From: Promethearchaeota archaeon
GTDB lineage: Archaea; Asgardarchaeota; Lokiarchaeia; Sigyniarchaeales; SOKP01
Direction: 5' to 3'
NCBI GenBank assembly: GCA_016839585.1
Contig: JAEOTZ010000048.1
Location: 1-11,084, forward strand
DNA: 11,084 bases
In this document: in pieces, positions 1 through 8,571 of the stretch
How positions within the stretch are numbered: position 1 is the first letter of the stretch
How the letters are laid out: each line of letters begins with the position of its first letter
The notes under the pieces: model-generated
The model's input: the letters and a program-made list of their open reading frames with translations, nothing else
What the model was told of the DNA's origin: nothing
Database searches by the model: none
Translations under genes and position numbers: made by a program

Positions 1-763
1 AGCCAGAAATATCAGGTAAAATTATATCTAATAGGATTAACCTTGGAGTGCTTGTCCTCAATTCCTCTATTCCCTTCGTTCCACTTACTACCCCTTTACA
101 GGTATAGCTTTTACTTTCAAAATAGCTGGTTAACAGCCTGATTGTGGCTAAATCATCTTCAATTAATAGGATATCATATTGAGTTTGAACTTCCTCTACC
201 TTAATTTTATCGAGAATGTTAATGATTTTATTTTCAAGAAGCATGCTTTGGTCAAATATATTTTTAATAGTTGATAAGACATCCTCTTCTAATTCGTCTT
301 TATAATTTTCAAGAAGTAGTTGACTAAATCCCTTAATACTGGTCAAAGGTTCCTTTAATGCATGTGAAATATTAGCAATTGTTTTTTCATCCATTTTATG
401 TATACCTGAGCTTATTAAGTTCGTTTTTTGCTCAATAAAATGATCAACACTATCTCTAATTAGCTTCGAAATAGTAGTATAATTATGATCTCTTATAAAT
501 TCTTGCCATTTCTCTTTTGTATCCTCAGCTACATATAAAGAAATTCTCTCCTTATCCCTATCGTAGATTTTTTCGCCTTTCAACCATTTTTTAAACCCTT
601 CAGTTATCTTTTCTTGCCAAATTGCGTATTTACCTGTCTCATCTTCATATTTTTTCATCAATTTATTAGCTTTTTCACTTTTCAAATCAAGTTTGGCAAT
701 TTCTTCATCGGACATTATCTGTTTGTTGTTATTTCCTTCCTCATTCTTTGAAATATGGCTCAT
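1..763 (-). CDS. Partial CDS (C-terminus runs off the window): signal-transduction protein with N-terminal 'ETGKYAIW' module + RHH-like domain + HisKA(DHp)-like bundle + receiver (REC) domain; paralogue of 988..1827
   Basis: Missing from the ORF track because it has no stop in the window. Manual translation from ATG at 763: MSHISKNEEGNNNKQIMSDEEIAKLDLKSEKANKLMKKYEDETGKYAIWQEKITEGFKKWLKGEKIYDRDKERISLYVAEDTKEKWQEFIRDHNYTTISKLIRDSVDHFIEQK...NISHALKEPLTSIKGFSQLLLENYK...YDILLIEDDLATIRLLTSYFESKSYTCKGVVSGTKGIEELRTSTPRLILLDIILPDISG. Open for 254 codons. H-box His at 362-364; REC acidic pocket EDD and phosphoacceptor LLD are visible. Confidence 0.9.
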   Translation of the reverse strand, partial: MSHISKNEEGNNNKQIMSDEEIAKLDLKSEKANKLMKKYEDETGKYAIWQEKITEGFKKWLKGEKIYDRDKERISLYVAEDTKEKWQEFIRDHNYTTISKLIRDSVDHFIEQKTNLISSGIHKMDEKTIANISHALKEPLTSIKGFSQLLLENYKDELEEDVLSTIKNIFDQSMLLENKIINILDKIKVEEVQTQYDILLIEDDLATIRLLTSYFESKSYTCKGVVSGTKGIEELRTSTPRLILLDIILPDISG

Positions 764-987
764 CTCTTAGTCGTATAATTTAATCCTTTCAGAATTACAG
801 GATTTAATTCATCAGTCTATGACTTATGTGGTAAATTATTCCAAATTTTTTTTATAAAAATTATATTTTACAGTATTTTCTTTATCATTTTTATTAATTT
901 TTTATCTCTTATTAAATCTTTTTGACTATAATGTTAATTTGACGTGATCAAACAATTTTAAAAAAGAAGGAATTCAATTTAGAAATT

Positions 988-1827
988 TCAATTTTTCACT
1001 TTCTTATCGTTTAAAAGAGTAAATATTGGTTCAAAATCTGAGAAATTAAACGGTTTTAAAATGTATCCATTAGCCTTTCCTAAATTTTTTTCTACTTCAG
1101 ATGCAGCTATCGCGGTTAGGAAATAAACAGGAATATCCTTATATTCATTATCAGATTTAATTGTTTCACAGATTTTATATCCATCCAAATCGGGTAAAAT
1201 TATGTCTAATAATATTAGTTTTGGAATTGCATTACCCAATTCTTCTAATCCTTTAGAACCACTCACAATCCCCTTGCATCTAAAACCTCTGCTTTCAAAG
1301 ATCTGCTTTATTAATCGAATTGTAGCAAGATCATCTTCAATTAATAAAACATCGTATTCTGTTTCTACTTTAATATTATCTAGAAAGCTAATAATCTTAT
1401 TTTCAAGAAGTATACTCTGGTCAAAAATATTTTTTACAGTATCTAATATATGATCGTTCAATTTATCCTTATAATTCTCAAGAAGCAATTGTGAATATCC
1501 TTTTATTGATGTTAGCGGCTCTTTTAAGGCGTGTGAAATGTTAAATACTTTAAGAGAACCAATTTTAAATAAATCACTTTCATACTGATCCTTTTTGGAT
1601 TCTATAAAGAATTCTACAGCTTTCCTTATTAATTTAGAAATTGTTGGAGTCTCATTATTTTTTATATACTTTAACCATTTTTCCTTTGTATCCTCTGATA
1701 CATATAACGATATTCGCTCCTTATCCCGTAGATAGATTTTATCTCCTTTTAACCACTTCTTGAATCCTTCTGTTACAAGTCCCCGCCAAACTGCATATTT
1801 TCCTGTGCCTTTTTCATATTGGCTCAT
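988..1827 (-). CDS. Response-regulator-like protein: 'GKYAVW' module + RHH-like domain + HisKA(DHp)-like bundle + C-terminal REC domain, no HATPase domain. True start is probably upstream, at ATT 1950
   Basis: H-box-like ISHALKEPLTSIKGYSQLL (His at 1531-1533). Complete REC signature: LLIEDD, LILLDIILPDLDG, IPVYFLTA, YILKPF. RHH-like pattern RISLYVSEDTKEKW...TISKLIRKAVEFFIE (1600-1716). Collinear with the 1..763 paralogue. Confidence 0.9.
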   Translation of the reverse strand: MSQYEKGTGKYAVWRGLVTEGFKKWLKGDKIYLRDKERISLYVSEDTKEKWLKYIKNNETPTISKLIRKAVEFFIESKKDQYESDLFKIGSLKVFNISHALKEPLTSIKGYSQLLLENYKDKLNDHILDTVKNIFDQSILLENKIISFLDNIKVETEYDVLLIEDDLATIRLIKQIFESRGFRCKGIVSGSKGLEELGNAIPKLILLDIILPDLDGYKICETIKSDNEYKDIPVYFLTAIAASEVEKNLGKANGYILKPFNFSDFEPIFTLLNDKKVKN

Positions 1828-1956
1828 TAATTCTTTGATTTTATCACTATTTAAATCTATGATTTCCTCATTTATCTTAATATTTTCATCTATATTACTA
1901 TTATTTGGCTTTTCCGTTGCTTTCCGTGTATCTTTCTCGTTATTATTAATTAAAAA

Positions 1957-1964
1957 CTCACCTT
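1957..1964 (-). promoter_or_regulatory. Shine-Dalgarno-like AAGGTGAG, 6 nt upstream of an in-frame ATT (1950-1948) of the REC gene
   Basis: The minus strand reads AAGGTGAG-TTTTTA-ATT AAT AAT AAC GAG. GGTGA is the typical archaeal SD core, and the frame is open from here to the stop at 988. Confidence 0.6.
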
Positions 1965-2013
1965 AAAAGAAGAGGTAGTTAGTTTTATTACCACAAGTGA
2001 TTTTTTTTTAAAC

Positions 2014-2030
2014 ACTTTTATAATAAAAGT
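2014..2030. promoter_or_regulatory. Perfect 8-bp inverted repeat ACTTTTAT-A-ATAAAAGT containing a TATA-like TTATAAAA (minus strand) upstream of the REC gene
   Basis: Read directly from the sequence, about 65 bp upstream of the proposed ATT start. The AT-rich context lowers its significance. Confidence 0.35.
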
Positions 2031-2164
2031 TGCCTTTTTTAAGTTTTTACACAAACAAAATAGTTAGAAACAATATTATAAAACAAGGTTTAGTTTATAT
2101 TAAAAAAAGCTATGAAATAAAGTTTAAAAAAACATGAAGTTAGAAACTAATTGCTATAACGGAC

Positions 2165-2533
2165 TTAATCGCCTTCTAATTTACTTCCACAATGAGAACA
2201 AAATTCAGAATCTAACGCAAATAATTTTTTCCCACATATTGGACAAAAGCTTGACACTGCTGAATCTTCTTGAGGTTGAATTTTTACCTCCTTTTGAGAC
2301 AATTCTTTCCTTTTTTTACGATAATACATAGAATCTTCGATTACTTCAACAAAAAAGGCAATTATACCACCTACTATTAAAAAAATAATTCCACCAACAA
2401 ATAAATAAACATTTTTCAATAGAAAAAAATTCCAGATAAGAACCAGTATAAAGAATATTATAAGTATACCAATAATTCCAGTAATTATATGCTTTGCTTT
2501 TACCTTTTCAGAATTTTTCATTTTTAAAACCAA
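2165..2533 (-). CDS. Small membrane protein (2 TM helices) with C-terminal zinc ribbon
   Basis: Two hydrophobic stretches (IITGIIGILIIFFILVLIWNFFLL; VYLFVGGIIFLIVGGIIAFFV), a basic linker, then CPICG...FCSHCGSKL. Start is TTG 2533 or ATG 2521. Confidence 0.8.
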   Translation of the reverse strand: MVLKMKNSEKVKAKHIITGIIGILIIFFILVLIWNFFLLKNVYLFVGGIIFLIVGGIIAFFVEVIEDSMYYRKKRKELSQKEVKIQPQEDSAVSSFCPICGKKLFALDSEFCSHCGSKLEGD

Positions 2534-2684
2534 TTATGATTTCTTCTCTAAAAATACAATAATATAAATATATATTTAAATGTAATAAATAAATTATAAA
2601 GATTCAATTACAGCTTAATTTACTTTTATTAAAAGAGAAAAACTAATAATATTAATTTTAATAGATAAGTTAGGGTTTAATAAT

Positions 2685-3332
2685 TTGAAATTTGAAGTTT
2701 TAAAGGAAAGTGATATTAATCGACTAGCACGTGATTCACATTGGGTAGGGCTAGGAACTAAGAAGGATCCTTATGTTATTGACTCAAAAGAGTTTTTGCC
2801 AGTTCGGTTTCGTATAAAAAATAGCAAATTACATATTCTTATAAGAAATTGTAAATTTGAGTTTATTTCTTTGTGGAGATCGCAAAACATAACGATACAG
2901 GATTGCTCATGTGATATTTACTTTCATTATTGCCATGAAATTCACATTGAAAATTGTAATATTCCTACGTTTAGTTTCGATTATTGCTATAATAATGTCC
3001 TTAAAAATTGTACAATAGATTATATTGATAACCAGTTTAGTAGAGGAAATCTTTTTGAAGGTATTCAAACTTCTGAGGATTACAAGAGGATTATAATTGA
3101 GGGCGGAACATTAGAAGGGGCCTATAAAATATTTTTTAGAATAATTCCAGTGATATTATTAATAGCCATAACTTACCTTATTACCCAAGATTTTATTAGA
3201 GAAAACCTTCTCTTGTTAATTTTATCATTTGTAGGGGTGCTAATGTTATTTATCACTTACTTATTTATTATTATTCACTATTACAAAAATAAAAGGCGCA
3301 TATCTAAATATCCTTTAAATTCAATTAAGTAA
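2685..3332 (+). CDS. Putative right-handed beta-helix (pectin-lyase-fold-like) repeat protein with two C-terminal TM helices
   Basis: GxGTxxDPYxI motif (GLGTKKDPYVI) followed by I-x-I-x-N/D-C-type repeats (ILIRNC, ITIQDC, IHIENC, NVLKNC) and two hydrophobic C-terminal segments. TTG start. Confidence 0.7.
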   Translation: MKFEVLKESDINRLARDSHWVGLGTKKDPYVIDSKEFLPVRFRIKNSKLHILIRNCKFEFISLWRSQNITIQDCSCDIYFHYCHEIHIENCNIPTFSFDYCYNNVLKNCTIDYIDNQFSRGNLFEGIQTSEDYKRIIIEGGTLEGAYKIFFRIIPVILLIAITYLITQDFIRENLLLLILSFVGVLMLFITYLFIIIHYYKNKRRISKYPLNSIK

Positions 3333-3565
3333 TCTACTATATTTGTTATCAAAAAATTATAATTTGCACATATCACATTTATTTTTATAAAAAATTGCTT
3401 AACGATCTATGATTTTATGTCGGGAATTGAAATATAGTTCTCGAAATTTTCATGAAAACTATGATGTAGGTAATATTCTATTTTTAAAATATCTGTAACT
3501 AAAATAAAATATAAATTTACACTTAAAAAAAAATTTTAAAGCATTATTGAAAAAAAAATTTGTTC

Positions 3566-3596
3566 TGTTGTAAAGCACAAAAAATTTTTTACAACA
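3566..3596. promoter_or_regulatory. Perfect 9-bp inverted repeat TGTTGTAAA-N13-TTTACAACA just upstream of the putative tfb TATA box; candidate operator
   Basis: Arms at 3566-3574 and 3588-3596, read directly from the sequence. The repeat ends 6 bp before TTTAAATA. Confidence 0.5.
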
Positions 3597-3602
3597 ATAA
3601 CA

Positions 3603-3610
3603 TTTAAATA
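3603..3610 (+). promoter_or_regulatory. Putative archaeal TATA box (TTTAAATA) for tfb
   Basis: Matches the TTTAWATA consensus and is preceded by an A-rich BRE-like stretch. It would imply a leader of about 145 nt. An SD-like AAGGT lies just upstream of the tfb ATG. Confidence 0.4.
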
Positions 3611-3635
3611 CTAGAAAGTTAAATTATATTATATA

Positions 3636-3670
3636 TTTGGACACAAAAAAATTTATGATTGTGTGCCAAA
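3636..3670 (+). repeat. Imperfect inverted repeat/hairpin TTTGGACACAA-N12-TTGTGT(G)CCAAA in the putative tfb 5' leader
   Basis: 11-bp stem with a single bulged G at 3665. Confidence 0.45.
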
Positions 3671-3778
3671 AATTTCAGTCAGTCTCTTGTGTGTGTAGGA
3701 AATATTAATCTCTTAATAAAAAATAACAACAAATATTTAATGTATTTGATCTAATAATTAGGGTTAAGGTAAGAGTTT

Positions 3779-4669
3779 ATGGTTGTAGAAATAAAACCTC
3801 AGGCGTCCTTTTGTCCAGAGTGTGGGGGTGGCACGATCTCAGTCCATCAGAGAGGGGAGATAGTATGTCGGCAATGCGGCTTGGTTATAGCAGAAAAAGA
3901 AGTAGATATTTCCCATAGCGGAATAAGGGCGTATTCTAAGCAAGAAAAAGACAAAAAAGAAAGAACTGGATGTCCAATTTCGATTTTGATGCCAGATATA
4001 GGCTTAAGTACGATTATCGATCGATCAAAAATTAAGAATCCAGATTTAAGGCGAGCAGCGAAGTGGAATACGCACTTATCATGGGAAAAGCGGAATATGC
4101 TTATTGCGATAACTGAGTTAAAAAGAATTGGTGGGAATTTAAATTTTCCAGAGCGTGTAAAAAAAGCAGCTGTTCGATTATATAAGGAAGTGTTTAAGAA
4201 GAATTTATTACGCGGAAGGTCTATTAATGGTATGATCGCGGCATGTGCATATTTTGTATGTAAGCAAGAAAGGGTTCCGATAACTCTTCAAGAAATTTTA
4301 GATGAGGCATCTATTAATGATAATATTGTAAAGAAATGCTATAAAATTTTAGTAAGAGAATTGAACTTAAAATCTCCTCATGTTGATCCAGTTTCGCTTA
4401 TTCCAAGGTTTTGTGCCGACTTAGGGTTAGACATCAATATAGAAAAGGAAGCAATTAAAATATTGAAGAACTTTATTGAGAGGACATCGATTTGCGGTAA
4501 AGATCCGAAAGGTTTATGCGCTGGAGCGATATATTTGGTTGCCAAACTTAAAAATCATAAGGTTAGTCAGAAGGATATTTCAAAAATTATCGGTGTTACA
4601 GAAGTAACATTACGTTCAAGGTATAAAGAGCTTTTAAAAAATATTAGTTTTACTTTTCAGGCATCCTAA
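3779..4669 (+). CDS. tfb: Transcription initiation factor IIB (TFB), probable paralogue with divergent B-reader
   Basis: N-terminal Zn ribbon CPECG...GEIVCRQCGLVI, ERTG motif, two cyclin repeats (LLRGRSI..., GKDPKGLCAGAIY) and C-terminal HTH VTEVTLRSRYKEL. Confidence 0.97.
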   Translation: MVVEIKPQASFCPECGGGTISVHQRGEIVCRQCGLVIAEKEVDISHSGIRAYSKQEKDKKERTGCPISILMPDIGLSTIIDRSKIKNPDLRRAAKWNTHLSWEKRNMLIAITELKRIGGNLNFPERVKKAAVRLYKEVFKKNLLRGRSINGMIAACAYFVCKQERVPITLQEILDEASINDNIVKKCYKILVRELNLKSPHVDPVSLIPRFCADLGLDINIEKEAIKILKNFIERTSICGKDPKGLCAGAIYLVAKLKNHKVSQKDISKIIGVTEVTLRSRYKELLKNISFTFQAS

Positions 4670-4682
4670 TTTATTTTTTCTT
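4670..4682 (+). terminator. T-rich tract immediately after the tfb stop; possible archaeal intrinsic terminator
   Basis: TTTATTTTTTCTT follows the TAA, in a 36-bp gap between convergent genes. Confidence 0.3.
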
Positions 4683-4705
4683 AAGTTAGATTTCTTCAGA
4701 ATGAT

Positions 4706-6037
4706 CTAAAAACCTTCTTCAGATGGGATGCTATACTTTCTACATATTTCTAAATATTGTTCTTTTGGGAGAGAATTTGGATACATATTGATTAAACTTA
4801 AATTCGGAGGGAATAAATTAAAATCTTTAATTTCAGAAATGGGATTATTATTTAGTTTCAACCATTCTAGATTAGATAATTTATTAAGACCTTTAAGTTC
4901 AGTTATGAGATTGTCATTCAGCTCTAAATGCATTAAATTTATGAGCTTTTCGAGCCCTTTTATTTCAATAATTTGATTTCCATTTAAATAAAGTTCTTTT
5001 AAATTTATTAAATTCTCAAATCCTTTTATCTCTGAAATGAGGTTGTTGTTTAAATCAAGTCTTCTTAAATTAGTTAGTTTTTCAAGTCCTTTTATTTCAG
5101 TTATCTGATTCCCATGTAAATAAAGTTCTTCCAATTTTGATAAATTTTCAAGGCTATTAATTTCTCTTATTTTATTCTTACTCAAATGTAAAATGCGCAC
5201 AGTTTTAAGTTTATTAAATCCTTCTATTTCATTGATATCTCCTATATCCTTGTTAATAATTGCTAAAACTGTATTATAAACTTTAAATGTTTGACCTTTG
5301 TACAAAACTCTCTCGATTATGAGAGGAGGATATATTTTAGTGAGATCAGGATATTTTTCTTTTATCCAAATTTTAAAATCATCAGTTATAATCCGATTTT
5401 GAATTGCAGGTTTGCGAGTTTCAGTCTCAAAACGTTTCATTTCTGGAGGTTTTTCAGGATAATACCAAATCTCTTTTTTGGGGCGAATTTCATCATATTC
5501 TAGATTATGTAAAATAATGAATCCAACACTATCTTTAATTAATTGAGTAAATGTAAAATAATCATATTCTCGCATAAATTTTTGCCATTTAGATTTCATT
5601 TCTTTGGAGATTATTGTATGAACATTTGGCTTGTCTCTATCGTAAATTTCCTCACCTAATAACCACTTTTTAAAACCTTCGGTTATTTTATCTTGCCAAA
5701 TAGCATATTTTCCTGTTTCATTTTCGAACATTTTAATTAATGACTTAACCTTTTCACTATTCAAATCAATATTGGCAATTTCTTTTTCAGTCATGATGTG
5801 AAATTTTTCTCTTTTGCTATTTAGAATTGAAGCTGATTTCTCTTTGATAAAATAATAAACAGAATTACTAATTAATTTAGAAATAGATGGGTAATTATGA
5901 GTTTTAATAAAATTTCGCCATTTTATATGTGTTTCATTTGTTATTTGAGCCGAAATCATCATATTATTAGAATCATAAAGGATATTATCACTTATCCAAA
6001 TTCTTGATCTATTAGATTTTTTTGGTTTTTCTTTCAT
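4706..6037 (-). CDS. Leucine-rich repeat (SDS22-like) protein with N-terminal tandem RHH-like domains and 'ETGKYAIW' modules
   Basis: C-terminal 22-aa LRRs (IKGLEKLTNLRRLDLNNNLISE etc.). The N-terminal half is homologous to the N-termini of the two REC proteins (ETGKYAIWQDKITEGFKKWLLGEEIYDRDK; KWRNFIKTHNYPSISKLISNSVYYFI). Confidence 0.9.
   Translation of the reverse strand: MKEKPKKSNRSRIWISDNILYDSNNMMISAQITNETHIKWRNFIKTHNYPSISKLISNSVYYFIKEKSASILNSKREKFHIMTEKEIANIDLNSEKVKSLIKMFENETGKYAIWQDKITEGFKKWLLGEEIYDRDKPNVHTIISKEMKSKWQKFMREYDYFTFTQLIKDSVGFIILHNLEYDEIRPKKEIWYYPEKPPEMKRFETETRKPAIQNRIITDDFKIWIKEKYPDLTKIYPPLIIERVLYKGQTFKVYNTVLAIINKDIGDINEIEGFNKLKTVRILHLSKNKIREINSLENLSKLEELYLHGNQITEIKGLEKLTNLRRLDLNNNLISEIKGFENLINLKELYLNGNQIIEIKGLEKLINLMHLELNDNLITELKGLNKLSNLEWLKLNNNPISEIKDFNLFPPNLSLINMYPNSLPKEQYLEICRKYSIPSEEGF
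4832..5227 (-). repeat. Six 66-bp coding repeats (22-aa LRR units)
   Basis: 396 bp = 6 x 66, with consensus IxGLxxLxxLxxLxLxxNxIxE. Confidence 0.85.
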
Positions 6038-6143: not shown

Positions 6144-7238
6144 TTATTTATTCTTAGTTTGTTCTAAAAACCACTCATTTGAATGTTGATAAAATATTTT
6201 ATAAGCTTCACAAAAATAGGTTTTTTCAGGGTGAGGATTATCTGGAAAGATTCTATCCTTAATGCAACCTCCATAGCATAATTCCTGCCAGTTACAACTA
6301 AGGCATTCTTTGCCTAGTTTTACTTTAAGTTTTTTGAATGAGTTATCTCTCTTATTTTTTAGATTGCTTAAGTTCTCTTCGAGTATGTTTCCGAGTTTAT
6401 ATGTTTGTTGTACGAAGAAATCACAGGGATAAACATCTCCATTCCATTCAATTAATAGGTATTCCGCACATTCTTTTTCAATGGTACAGCACCCTTTAGG
6501 ATAGCCGTAATAATATGCGAGTATACCATTAAACGTTCTTATTGATGCTTGATTAAGATTTTTTTTCCATTCGTCAAAGAGTTGACATAGAAATTTCCCA
6601 TATTGAGTTGGATTTATTGAAAATGACGCCTTTTTTCCATCAACGTCTACTTCAAGAGTGGGAATAAATTGTAAGTAAGTAAAATCATTATCGAGAAAAA
6701 AATTATAAATTTCTTTTACCCGATTTACATTAGATTTATTAATTACACAGAGAATATTGAATTCGACTTTATTTCGTTTAAGACATTCAGCAGCGTTCAT
6801 TACTTTTTGCCAGACAGATTTACCACCAATACTCTTTCTATACCGATCATGAATATCTTTTGGACCATCAAGACTCAGCCCTATTAAAAAGCGAAAATTA
6901 TGGAAAAAATTTCCCCATTCATCATTAATAAGAATTCCATTAGTTTGAAATGCATTTCCAATAATCTGACCTGTTTTCCCATATTTTTGTTGGAGTGATA
7001 CTACTTTTTTAAAAAACTCAAGTCCTGCTAATGTTGGTTCACCACCTTGCCATCCAAATATTGATTCGTTAAAATTAAATTGTAAAAATTCAGCTATCAT
7101 ATGTTCTAATACTTCTTTGCTCATTCGAGGATGATTAATTTTAGGGTATTCATCTGCTACCCTTAAATAGAAGCAATAATTACATCTTAAATTACAATCA
7201 AAAGATACAGGTTTTATGAGTAATTGAAATGGCTTCAC
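6144..7238 (-). CDS. Anaerobic sulfatase-maturating enzyme family radical SAM/SPASM protein (AslB/ChuR/anSME-like)
   Basis: LLIKPVSFDCNLRCNYCFY (CxxxCxxC), WQGGEPTLAGLEFF, QTNG, GLSLDGP, and the SPASM cysteine set (CTIEKEC...GDVYPCDFF...CLSC...CYGGC...FC). GTG start. Confidence 0.9.
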   Translation of the reverse strand: MKPFQLLIKPVSFDCNLRCNYCFYLRVADEYPKINHPRMSKEVLEHMIAEFLQFNFNESIFGWQGGEPTLAGLEFFKKVVSLQQKYGKTGQIIGNAFQTNGILINDEWGNFFHNFRFLIGLSLDGPKDIHDRYRKSIGGKSVWQKVMNAAECLKRNKVEFNILCVINKSNVNRVKEIYNFFLDNDFTYLQFIPTLEVDVDGKKASFSINPTQYGKFLCQLFDEWKKNLNQASIRTFNGILAYYYGYPKGCCTIEKECAEYLLIEWNGDVYPCDFFVQQTYKLGNILEENLSNLKNKRDNSFKKLKVKLGKECLSCNWQELCYGGCIKDRIFPDNPHPEKTYFCEAYKIFYQHSNEWFLEQTKNK

Positions 7239-7271: not shown

Positions 7272-7949
7272 TTAACTATTATTACATAAAAAAAGTCTGA
7301 TTCCACATTCATGACAAAATATTGAATCGGATTCTAATTCCATCCCACATCTTTCACAAGAATTATGGTGATGCTCACAAACAATGCTATTTTTTTCATT
7401 AATAGACTTCATTTTAATTAATTTTTTAAATGGAAAGGAACATATAGTTCCAATACTAGTAGTTATCCCTAAAATTCCGTATAAAATCCACATTAAATCA
7501 ATAGAAAACGGATCGCACTTAATAGTGTAACTTATAGTTCCTGCAGTAGTAGATCTAATAAGATGCAATCCAGAAGAATGAACGTGATATTTTCCTAAGT
7601 CATTAAGCTTTCCTCTTGAAACATAAAAAGTTTCAAGAAATTCTTCCATAAGCTGATTATAATCTAGTCCCCACTCTGATGACATCTCTGAAGCTATTCG
7701 TTGATAATATTCGAGTGTACTTTTTTTAATAATTAACAAACTAACGTCACTTGTAGATCTAAAGCTCCATTCAATCACATTTAATACTTTCCTTTCTAAT
7801 TCGAAATCTGGTTCATTTTCTCCAGAGTCTTCATGAAAAGCAAAATTCATTACAGTCTCTTGATTAGATAATACTGCTATACATCCAATTATTATTGTTG
7901 TTAATATTGGGAATACAAAAGTCTTTTTCTTAATTTTTTCTCCTAACAC
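7272..7949 (-). CDS. Membrane protein: N-terminal signal/TM, extracytoplasmic domain, TM, C-terminal zinc ribbon
   Basis: KKKTFVFPILTTIIIGCIAVL N-terminus, second hydrophobic segment LMWILYGILGITTSIGTICSF, and C-terminal CERCG...FCHECGIRL. Confidence 0.75.
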   Translation of the reverse strand: MLGEKIKKKTFVFPILTTIIIGCIAVLSNQETVMNFAFHEDSGENEPDFELERKVLNVIEWSFRSTSDVSLLIIKKSTLEYYQRIASEMSSEWGLDYNQLMEEFLETFYVSRGKLNDLGKYHVHSSGLHLIRSTTAGTISYTIKCDPFSIDLMWILYGILGITTSIGTICSFPFKKLIKMKSINEKNSIVCEHHHNSCERCGMELESDSIFCHECGIRLFLCNNS

Positions 7950-7971: not shown

Positions 7972-8571
7972 TTATTTTAGCATACTCCCACAATCGTGGC
8001 AAAATCTTGAAAACAAATCTACTTCAGTTTCACAGGAATGACAAACTAAAAAATTTTGTTTTACTTGTTGAGGTATTTGAATTGAATTATTTTCCAAATT
8101 TCGGGTATTGTTTTTATTATGTACATAAATTAAAGCTTCTGATTTTCTTGAAATTCTCTTAATATTACAGTTAGAAATTAATATCTGATCCCCAGAGAAT
8201 GCAAATAATTTCTTTATTTTTGAATTAGTGAATTTAATCTTATGTACTTGTTCTAACCTCAATTGCTTTAGTATATCAACATTATGGACCGAAATCATCG
8301 AGCATTTTCCTAAACCCAAGCATTAAATTCTAGCTTTCGAGATTCTCACATTTTTACACTGACGTAAATAAACAGCTTTTAAGGAGAATCCACTAAATTT
8401 AATATACTTACTTGAATCAGAAATTCTAACTTCATAAGATTCTGTAGAAAACTGGTCTTTAGTACTTAACAAATAGGGATCATCAATTGTTCCAGCTCCA
8501 GTTATTTCTATTTTAAATTCAAAATAACGGCTTGAATTCCATAAAGATCCACTAGAGATTTCGATATTCAA
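7972..8571 (-). pseudogene. Beta-helix-like + zinc-ribbon gene interrupted by one in-frame TAA (8325-8323); joins ORFs 8323..8571 and 7972..8319
   Basis: Both ORFs share one frame: ...AAA GCT AGA ATT TAA TGC TTG GGT TTA GGA AAA TGC..., and the repeat register continues across the stop. The N-part has GAGTIDDPYLL like the 2685..3332 paralogue; the C-part ends CHSC...FCHDCGSMLK. Confidence 0.75.

Follow-up and report, generated by a model that had tools for sequence, protein, structure and literature searches.

Predicted ribbon-helix-helix response regulators beside a divergent TFB gene in a Loki-type archaeon share a mini-domain, by sequence homology, with the tail of RNA polymerase subunit A'

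Archaea have few DNA-binding response regulators, and the route from archaeal signalling to the eukaryote-like basal transcription machinery is largely unknown. The locus analyzed here, referred to as the window, is the whole of contig C34 (11,084 bp) from a genome of 3.45 Mb with 28% G+C; database relatives of its proteins are labelled as Promethearchaeota or Hodarchaeota metagenome-assembled genomes, that is, Loki-type Asgard archaea. Three of its genes, all on the minus strand, share a stretch of sequence: gene 1 (2..763), gene 2 (988..1950) and a gene with leucine-rich repeats (LRR gene, 4706..6037). Among them lies tfb (3779..4669, plus strand), encoding a member of the transcription factor B (TFB) family. 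Do these genes form a regulatory system, and which of them belong to it? The first-pass annotation, made from the letters of the window, proposed a combinatorial network of all three around TFB. With slightly better than even confidence, our analysis favours a system in which an anciently duplicated pair of kinase-less ribbon-helix-helix (RHH) response regulators, genes 1 and 2, regulates a specialised tfb and carries, as a contact module, a mini-domain that is also present on the tail of the RNA polymerase.

Intact open reading frames (ORFs) were confirmed for gene 2 (988..1827/1950), the LRR gene and tfb, and gene 1 runs off the contig end. In BLASTP comparisons gene 1 is 62% identical to gene 2 over 249 aa (E 1e-106) and 56% identical to the LRR gene over 96 aa (E 4e-36), the identity between gene 2 and the LRR gene being 47% over 86 aa (E 2e-23). 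The unit common to the three genes is thus real, as first claimed, but it is not a single entity. Its ~95 residues consist of two separable parts, a mini-domain (hereafter, the module) and an RHH fold, and the LRR protein holds two modules and two RHH-like segments; its second, N-terminal RHH-like copy matches gene 1 with 42% identity over 77 aa (E 1e-14), and its degenerate second module with E 1e-4.

In genes 1 and 2 the unit is fused to a dimerization and histidine phosphotransfer (DHp) hairpin and a receiver (REC) domain. In gene 1, the tfb-distal paralogue, the module KANKLMKKYEDETGKYAIWQEKITEGFKKWLKGEKIY lies at 563..673 (translation checked; hidden Markov model (HMM) of the module, i-E 1.2e-20), the RHH-like segment KERISLYV...LIRDSVDHFIEQ at 428..553 (the equivalent part of gene 2 matches RHH folds), the DHp hairpin with the H-box ISHALKEPLTSIKG at 215..385, and the first half of the receiver at 2..172 (residues 198-254); the full-length orthologue in genome G182 has 310 aa and is 94% identical. 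In gene 2, the tfb-proximal paralogue, the corresponding parts are the module at 1732..1845, the RHH domain at 1579..1722, the DHp hairpin with His115 (numbering of window:988-1875) at 1378..1557, and the receiver, with an intact D/D/T/K set, at 994..1356. Pfam HisKA (PF00512) scores 35.0 bits in gene 1 and 29.5 bits in gene 2 (cut-off 26.9), and Response_reg (PF00072) scores 63.4 bits in gene 2 and 32.1 bits in the truncated gene 1 (cut-off 30.2). Together with the LRR_4 matches of the third gene (see below), this bears out the domain fusions named in the first-pass annotation.

The AlphaFold2 (AF2) model of gene 2, based on 47 relatives, has a mean pLDDT (predicted local distance difference test) of 88.5. 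It contains helix 11-24, beta-hairpin 29-34 (strands 29-30 and 33-34) and helix 36-42, which form the module, then an extended stretch, helices 61-74 and 79-99, a helical hairpin 107-134/141-166, and the receiver 176-294. As Pfam finds no HATPase_c domain in genes 1 and 2, and in gene 2 the DHp hairpin continues straight into the REC domain, the two proteins are not kinases, and we classify them as kinase-less RHH-DHp-REC response regulators. Foldseek with the full-length model returns receiver domains only, and the receiver superposes on those of RpaA, RR468, PhoB and CheY. In an alignment of 47 sequences D181, D224 and K274 of the receiver are invariant, positions E/D180-D181 form an acidic pair, and T254 is retained in 42; RHH positions R54, Y58, S80 and R84 are conserved in at least 90%.

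The start of gene 2 is less certain than the coordinates first given imply. The ORF exists in full, and an SD-like (Shine-Dalgarno-like) GGTGAG lies 7 nt before the ATT at 1950; the first canonical ATG, however, is at 1827, with no ATG, GTG or TTG upstream of it, and homology extends to ~1875. The orthologue in G182 likewise has no canonical start for the conserved N-terminal extension, and the one in G208 has an ATG. A non-canonical start at 1950 may be used, but is unproven.

For the RHH assignment, a model of residues 1-105 alone was aligned to 48,161 PDB representatives using VIA-align. Most of the top 45 fold matches of residues 49-105 are RHH proteins: ParD2 (Z 6.2, root-mean-square deviation (rmsd) 1.9, 49/49 residues) and, with Z of ~4-6.2, PrpA, MazE, NikR, the RHH domain of PutA (Z 5.1), Arc (Z 3.9) and omega, as well as CopA, AmrZ and SvtR. 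The strand region appears as coil in monomer AF2 predictions, and a PDB sequence search with the N-terminal region gave no relative. The fold matches support, at the level of a structural model, a ribbon-helix-helix fold for residues 49-105 of the gene 2 family, in agreement with the first reading of this segment. It is very probable that the products of genes 1 and 2 are, as predicted, DNA-binding response regulators.

The same set of domains could also be read as a phosphorelay or phosphatase intermediate similar to Spo0B or ChpT, in which the DHp His would exchange phosphate with its own or a foreign receiver Asp, and the RHH fold and the module would serve for localisation only. Consistent with this, the HisKA match exceeds the Pfam cut-off, the H-box motif SHALKEPLT is present, its His being shared by the two window genes and 33 of the 47 relatives, and HisKA-only proteins may retain a phospho-acceptor role (Galperin 2018, PMC5847659). 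However, in the other 14 relatives the His is replaced (by Tyr, Leu and others), while the receiver residues are invariant; the residue at H+1, Ala or Asp in the family, is Ala in the window genes, so that the acidic catalytic residue is missing; and R54, Y58, S80 and R84 of the RHH domain are as conserved as the receiver site. We consider such a role improbable.

The kinship of the module became apparent from a genome-wide hmmsearch with the shared unit, which matched the C-terminus of a 982-aa ORF on contig C61 (C61:27656-30601). This ORF is subunit A' of the RNA polymerase (RpoA'): Pfam Rpb1 domains 1-5 extend up to residue 874, and RpoA'' follows it. Behind these domains there is a K/P/E-rich linker of ~45 residues, followed by ...LQKQYEEETGxxAIWRxKETKAYIEWKKQKIG at the very end. 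In searches of 21,072 ORFs, the HMM of the regulator modules finds RpoA' with E 4.8e-6, and the HMM of the tail finds, in turn, a further paralogue of the regulators on contig C87 (5.6e-10), gene 2 (1.8e-7), the LRR gene (3.8e-7) and gene 1 (2.8e-6). In HHalign, the module family of gene 2 matches the RpoA' tail module with 98.6% probability (E 7.4e-16, 32 columns). Judged by these profile comparisons, the N-terminal ~32-residue helix-hairpin-helix mini-domain of the regulators is homologous to the RpoA' tail module. This homology is new here; the first reading had missed that the module is an independent mini-domain also found on the polymerase tail.

All 30 inspected genomes of the window's family have the tail module. 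In sister family f3 the tail carries either one module (G131, G132, G139, G142, G143) or three (G135, G136, G137), the latter spaced by low-complexity, K/T-rich linkers, and in three other families of the class examined it is absent. Known domain collections do not contain it: the N-terminal 50 residues have no Pfam or NCBIfam match, a PDB sequence profile search with the module gave chance matches only (S15 at E 0.14), Foldseek with the N-terminal model found nothing at E <= 0.001, the VIA-align matches cover residues 49-105 and none covers the module (residues 11-43), and the ESM Atlas yielded no usable match.

The module is a promiscuous mini-domain. Besides the regulators and RpoA', it occurs C-terminally in a membrane protein (C26) and in a GIFT/ABC_transp_aux-like protein (C82), on plain LRRs without RHH (L053:12529-13365), and in fusions P0135, P0051 and P0074, namely a Cap4 nuclease-LRR-reverse transcriptase protein (870 aa), an Arf-GTPase-module-REC protein and a NosD beta-helix protein. 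A 421-aa protein on contig C8 (C8:48752-50014; relative P0052) combines an unknown domain at the N-terminus with 6-7 alternating repeats of the module behind it, has no Pfam match, and could be a scaffold for the binding partner of the module. No module gene was found beside the other seven TFB paralogues of the genome: there is no module match on C33, C23, C16, C78, C91 or C89, and the sole match on C61 is the RpoA' tail itself, ~23 kb from the TFB of that contig.

What might the regulators control? The nearest candidate is tfb, whose product is one of eight TFB paralogues in the genome. It contains a zinc ribbon (PF08271, Zn_Ribbon_TF, 30.6 bits) and two TFIIB repeats (PF00382, 1.4e-42) and scores 256.6 bits on NCBIfam PRK00423 (NF001658), below the cut-off of 384, whereas the C61 and C23 copies reach 457 and 438.5 bits; among the paralogues, the one on C33 is closest to it (59% identity). 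It is therefore a member of the TFIIB family but a divergent paralogue, as had been proposed. The ranking of the eight paralogues by score led us to reject it as the housekeeping TFB.

The regulator pair and the orthologous tfb were compared at 20 loci from six genera. The pair is divergent from and adjacent to tfb (79-98% identity across genera) in 17 of them, and in one more genome, G204, a 12-kb insertion lies between the two, so that the link is kept in 18/20, across five genera. Of the remaining two loci, one ends at the contig edge, and the other, in G213, has no tfb before the contig end, ~6 kb from the pair. The co-localisation, which had been named as a point on which the original proposal could fail, is hence conserved among related genomes. 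In the window itself, two strain-specific genes (2165..2533 and 2685..3332) separate gene 2 from tfb, which is a correction to the first reading. A 160-aa protein without a Pfam match (u160; L046:6100-6582, minus strand; 74-91% identity) is encoded beside the distal regulator gene in 18/20 loci, mostly adjacent to it, and could belong to the same unit.

The second line of evidence is a cis-element. Upstream of tfb, a GTGTGT core with consensus TTGTGTGTACAAAA is found 63-118 nt before the ATG in 15/17 loci, with variants in the other two, and its flanks have diverged among loci. Relative to the intergenic background, ACACACA is enriched upstream of tfb in 8 of 10 representative genomes (p 2e-14), GTGTGTA in 6 of 10 (p 4e-11) and ATAACAA in 9 of 10 (p 3e-8). 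In the window, a cluster at 3639..3699 (plus strand), 80-140 nt upstream of the tfb ATG, comprises GGACACAAAAAAA (3639-3651), ATTGTGTGCCAAAAA (3658-3672) and TTGTGTGTGTAGG (3687-3699), and the candidate operator region contains several TGTGT/ACACA and TTGTTAT/ATAACAA sites in both orientations. The first-pass annotation had described this region as palindrome-rich. Generic inverted repeats are in fact no richer here than AT-rich DNA predicts: the repeat search upstream of tfb gave AT-rich low-complexity pairs only, and the window shows no enrichment of the loose pattern TGTGTGTWSAAA when 2 mismatches are allowed (5 found, 3.7 expected). What stands is the specific conserved element.

The same type of element precedes the tfb-proximal regulator gene. 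A TTGTGTA-type element is found upstream of it in 11/16 loci, and ACACAAA in 7/11 representatives (p 1e-7); in the window, TTTGTGTAAAAA (2044..2055, minus strand) lies in the gene 2 promoter region ~20 nt upstream of the TATA-like TTTTATTATAAAAG. No TGTGT-type k-mer is enriched upstream of the tfb-distal gene. TGTGTGTA occurs 37 times in the whole 3.45-Mb genome, and the strict motif 27 times. All four TTGTGTGTAAAA 12-mers (C26:74416, C31:24099, C89:90864, C90:104970) are intergenic, three of them at most ~20 nt before a TATA-like stretch, and none of the four is followed by a known RNA or tRNA. Together with the tfb and gene 2 promoters they may constitute a small regulon. The element shared by these two promoters suggests common control, and its distribution is what would be expected, on sequence grounds, if a site common to two divergent promoters were under selection. 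Thus the functional tie to tfb, first argued from proximity, gains an independent hint of co-regulation in a shared rare element, whereas the adjacency itself lies within a collinear block of ~14 kb and is absent in sister families.

Several points weigh against a pair that acts on tfb and has a module tied to the polymerase. The block of ~14 kb is collinear in the whole family (Rrp4, SBDS, PsmA, profilin, DUF2110, u160, the pair, tfb, in some genomes radical SAM, uL2-like, GatD), so the adjacency of tfb alone is weak evidence, as it could be inherited gene order. In sister-family genomes with the regulator there is no tfb within 9 kb. The p-values of the cis-element are overstated, because the loci are related by descent and are not independent samples; the element also precedes unrelated promoters, its spacing to TATA-like boxes varies, and it could be bound by another factor or by TFB itself. 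The Z-scores of the RHH fold are modest (<= 6.2), though the match list is consistent, and among curated models no Pfam or NCBIfam RHH family matches at E <= 0.1. The DHp His is not invariant, and the window genes have Ala rather than an acidic residue at H+1. Finally, the module is found on many unrelated proteins and could serve as an adaptor in general, without particular ties to transcription.

Taken together, some of these observations would fit an ordinary lineage-specific response-regulator pair with targets elsewhere, located beside tfb because a housekeeping block was never rearranged, the upstream element being that of another regulator or of the TFB promoter itself (e.g. an extended BRE, the TFB recognition element, read by this TFB). 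The collinearity of the block in all genera agrees with it, as do families f3 and f4, where no tfb is near the regulator, the TTGTGTGTAAAA copies ~15 nt upstream of TATA-like boxes at unrelated intergenic sites, and the distal regulator gene, which has no element. On the other hand, the genes have taken up insertions of 1-12 kb between them and yet were never separated or reoriented, and the element is common specifically to the tfb and proximal regulator promoters. In the GC-richer family f4, moreover, TGTGT/ACACA motifs lie within 60 nt of the regulator genes, with a hexamer count near chance expectation; in one genome (L078, upstream of 9319) they form a perfect palindrome of 14 bp, ACACATATATGTGT, ~45-60 nt ahead of the regulator gene. 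We regard this explanation as unlikely. That the regulators of the favoured system control the window tfb is a possibility somewhat short of even, and that the module connects them to the polymerase machinery is more tentative still.

The age of the pair can be read from the tree and from its distribution. In a maximum-likelihood tree of 40 regulators the tfb-proximal copies separate from the tfb-distal ones as two clades (support 98/97), both of which cover genera g1, g12, g5 and g13; as each clade covers at least four genera, the duplication is ancient, and the order of the two retained copies has stayed fixed. Among 1.8 billion representatives, the profile of the module and RHH unit has only 180 protein matches at E <= 1e-3. 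Regulators of this family are present in 133/134 genomes of the window's family, in 5/14 and 4/4 of two sister families, and in 1/2 genomes of one further family of the class (weak match, E 1.5e-6), and were not found in other families among the 400 genomes searched; the regulator family is restricted to the Lokiarchaeia (Promethearchaeia) lineage. The paralogue on C87 (C87:23566-26814), the fourth protein in the genome with the module-RHH-DHp-REC order (281 aa), is encoded convergently with a kinase gene (HisKA and HATPase) and downstream of a gene for an Arf/RagA-like GTPase (410 aa) whose long tail is rich in Lys and Pro. In total, the genome contains ~12 large HATPase_c ORFs, which are candidate kinases.

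In the system that we favour, the RHH and DHp parts would make the regulator an obligate dimer, which may be a heterodimer, since both paralogues are always kept. An unlinked histidine kinase, one of the ~12 candidates, would phosphorylate the receiver, and phosphorylation would change the seating of the dimer on arrays of TGTGT/ACACA-type sites. Because such sites are conserved just upstream of the tfb and tfb-proximal regulator promoters, the pair probably autoregulates and sets the level of the specialised TFB. The N-terminal mini-domain would act as a protein-contact module, either binding the partner of the polymerase tail (mimicry or competition) or pairing with the tail itself (recruitment), and such contact would give two-component signalling a direct link to the basal machinery. 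A more general picture, which we think unlikely at present, is that of a Loki-type polymerase tail with 1-3 mini-domains, where module-bearing RHH factors and signalling proteins reach the polymerase or its partners by pairing or by competition for docking sites, the locus described here being wired to a specialised TFB. Were it true, it would represent a recruitment or mimicry logic not described for archaeal transcription.

The LRR gene, the third member of the network first proposed, remains to be placed. It encodes, from the N-terminus, an RHH-like segment (5840-5968), a module (5636-5749), a second RHH-like segment (5504-5629), a degenerate module (5360-5452) and six SDS22-type LRRs (4799-5266). 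The repeats give an LRR_4 match in Pfam (6.2e-30, 5 stretches) and appear in the translation as six units of 22 residues with the periodicity LxxLxxLxLxxNxIxxIxxLxx; together, profile match and periodicity identify them as SDS22-like. The network would have REC-type and LRR-type proteins meeting in mixed RHH dimers around TFB, as a system of three inputs. It is supported by the 56% identity with gene 1 across the module and RHH stretch; in addition, the gene is intact, the same protein is found on 4 contigs and as one fragment, and a module-LRR protein without RHH is encoded near the pair in G213.

The gene is, however, missing in G182 and G208, the closest relatives (tfb 98% identical), where a radical-SAM gene directly follows tfb. 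With residues 1-262 as a query, 43 homologues were found, all of them HisKA/REC regulators and none with LRRs, and the 90% cluster of the LRR protein has two members, itself and a 170-aa fragment. R54 and Y58, the beta-strand Arg and Tyr that hardly vary in the family, are lost from both of its RHH copies, and R84 is lost from one. We accordingly rejected the LRR gene as a conserved third member, and the three-input network is highly improbable. Being absent from the closest relatives, the gene is a recent strain-specific chimera that reuses module and RHH pieces, rather than a conserved partner of the pair, and it shows how freely the Loki-type lineage shuffles the module. Module-LRR proteins in G213 and G133 likewise show module shuffling.

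Other genes of the window lie outside the conserved system. The ORF at 2165..2533 (minus strand) encodes a small membrane protein that varies among strains and has a zinc ribbon (Pfam) at its C-terminus, for which there is a partial match in G182 only and none at the other related loci. The strain-specific ORF at 2685..3332 (plus strand), with a weak DUF3737 or beta-helix-like match and C-terminal transmembrane (TM) segments, has no match in any of 20 related loci. The small proteins encoded at 2165-2533, 7272-7949 and 7972-8319 (all on the minus strand) have similar CxxC...CxxC zinc ribbons at their ends and vary among strains; the first of them has TM segments. The radical SAM/SPASM gene at 6144-7238 (minus strand), located between tfb and the gene for the uL2-like protein, occurs in part of the family only (G182, G208, G264, G260).

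The link to the polymerase tail makes this class of regulators directly testable. If the shared domain mediates contact, it would define a regulatory interface of Asgard archaea based on the polymerase tail, and would also provide a handle for finding the partner.

With regard to known systems, the RHH-HisKA-REC architecture has already been catalogued: one sentence of Galperin, Makarova, Wolf and Koonin (2018, PMC5847659) lists four such proteins in Lokiarchaeum GC14_75, with no analysis given. Database relatives of the window regulators are labelled 'response regulator [Promethearchaeota archaeon]'. As the described architecture goes, which is the only basis of the comparison, the GC14_75 proteins have the same domain order (RHH, HisKA without HATPase, REC) and come from the same lineage, and the window regulators belong to this catalogued but unstudied class. 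The N-terminal mini-domain, the tandem pair, the tfb neighbourhood, the cis-element and the LRR chimera are not in that work and are findings from the window; our literature search for the module, for the polymerase tail and for an RHH-LRR fusion yielded no further work.

Archaeal regulators that combine a helix-turn-helix (HTH) domain with REC, FilR1 and LtrR, are few in number (PMC5847659). Like them, and like OmpR/PhoB and RpaA, the window regulators have a receiver with the full D/D/T/K set controlling a DNA-binding domain, binding being predicted here. They differ from these HTH or winged-HTH proteins in the N-terminal RHH domain, in the DHp hairpin between the output and the C-terminal receiver, and in the polymerase-tail-like module. 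With RHH repressors (omega, CopG, Arc, MetJ, ParD and other antitoxin RHH proteins) residues 49-105 agree at the level of the fold, and these repressors bind arrays of short repeats, which may be compared with the candidate operator region. Unlike them, the window RHH domain, which is predicted to bind DNA, has 10-17% sequence identity and no Pfam RHH match and is fused to DHp-REC.

The window TFB resembles alternative TFBs, such as those of haloarchaea, in being a TFIIB-family paralogue beside canonical copies that could redirect the polymerase to a subset of genes. Sulfolobus TFB2 (bioRxiv 10.64898/2026.09.06.749720) is likewise an alternative TFB beside canonical copies. In contrast to alternative TFBs with functional data, the one described here is known from its sequence: it is 79-98% conserved within one family, and sister families have no clear orthologue of it, the best TFB match there being 42-47% identical.

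As for the polymerase tail, the closest functional analogy is with the C-terminal domain of the alpha subunit (alpha-CTD) of bacterial RNA polymerase, and no homology is claimed. The alpha-CTD is a small folded domain on a flexible linker, whose known contacts are activators and DNA, and the RpoA' tail module is, similarly, a small folded domain tethered by a flexible linker. Unlike the alpha-CTD, the Loki-type tail is part of subunit A', carries 1-3 copies of its domain, and shares this domain with the regulators.

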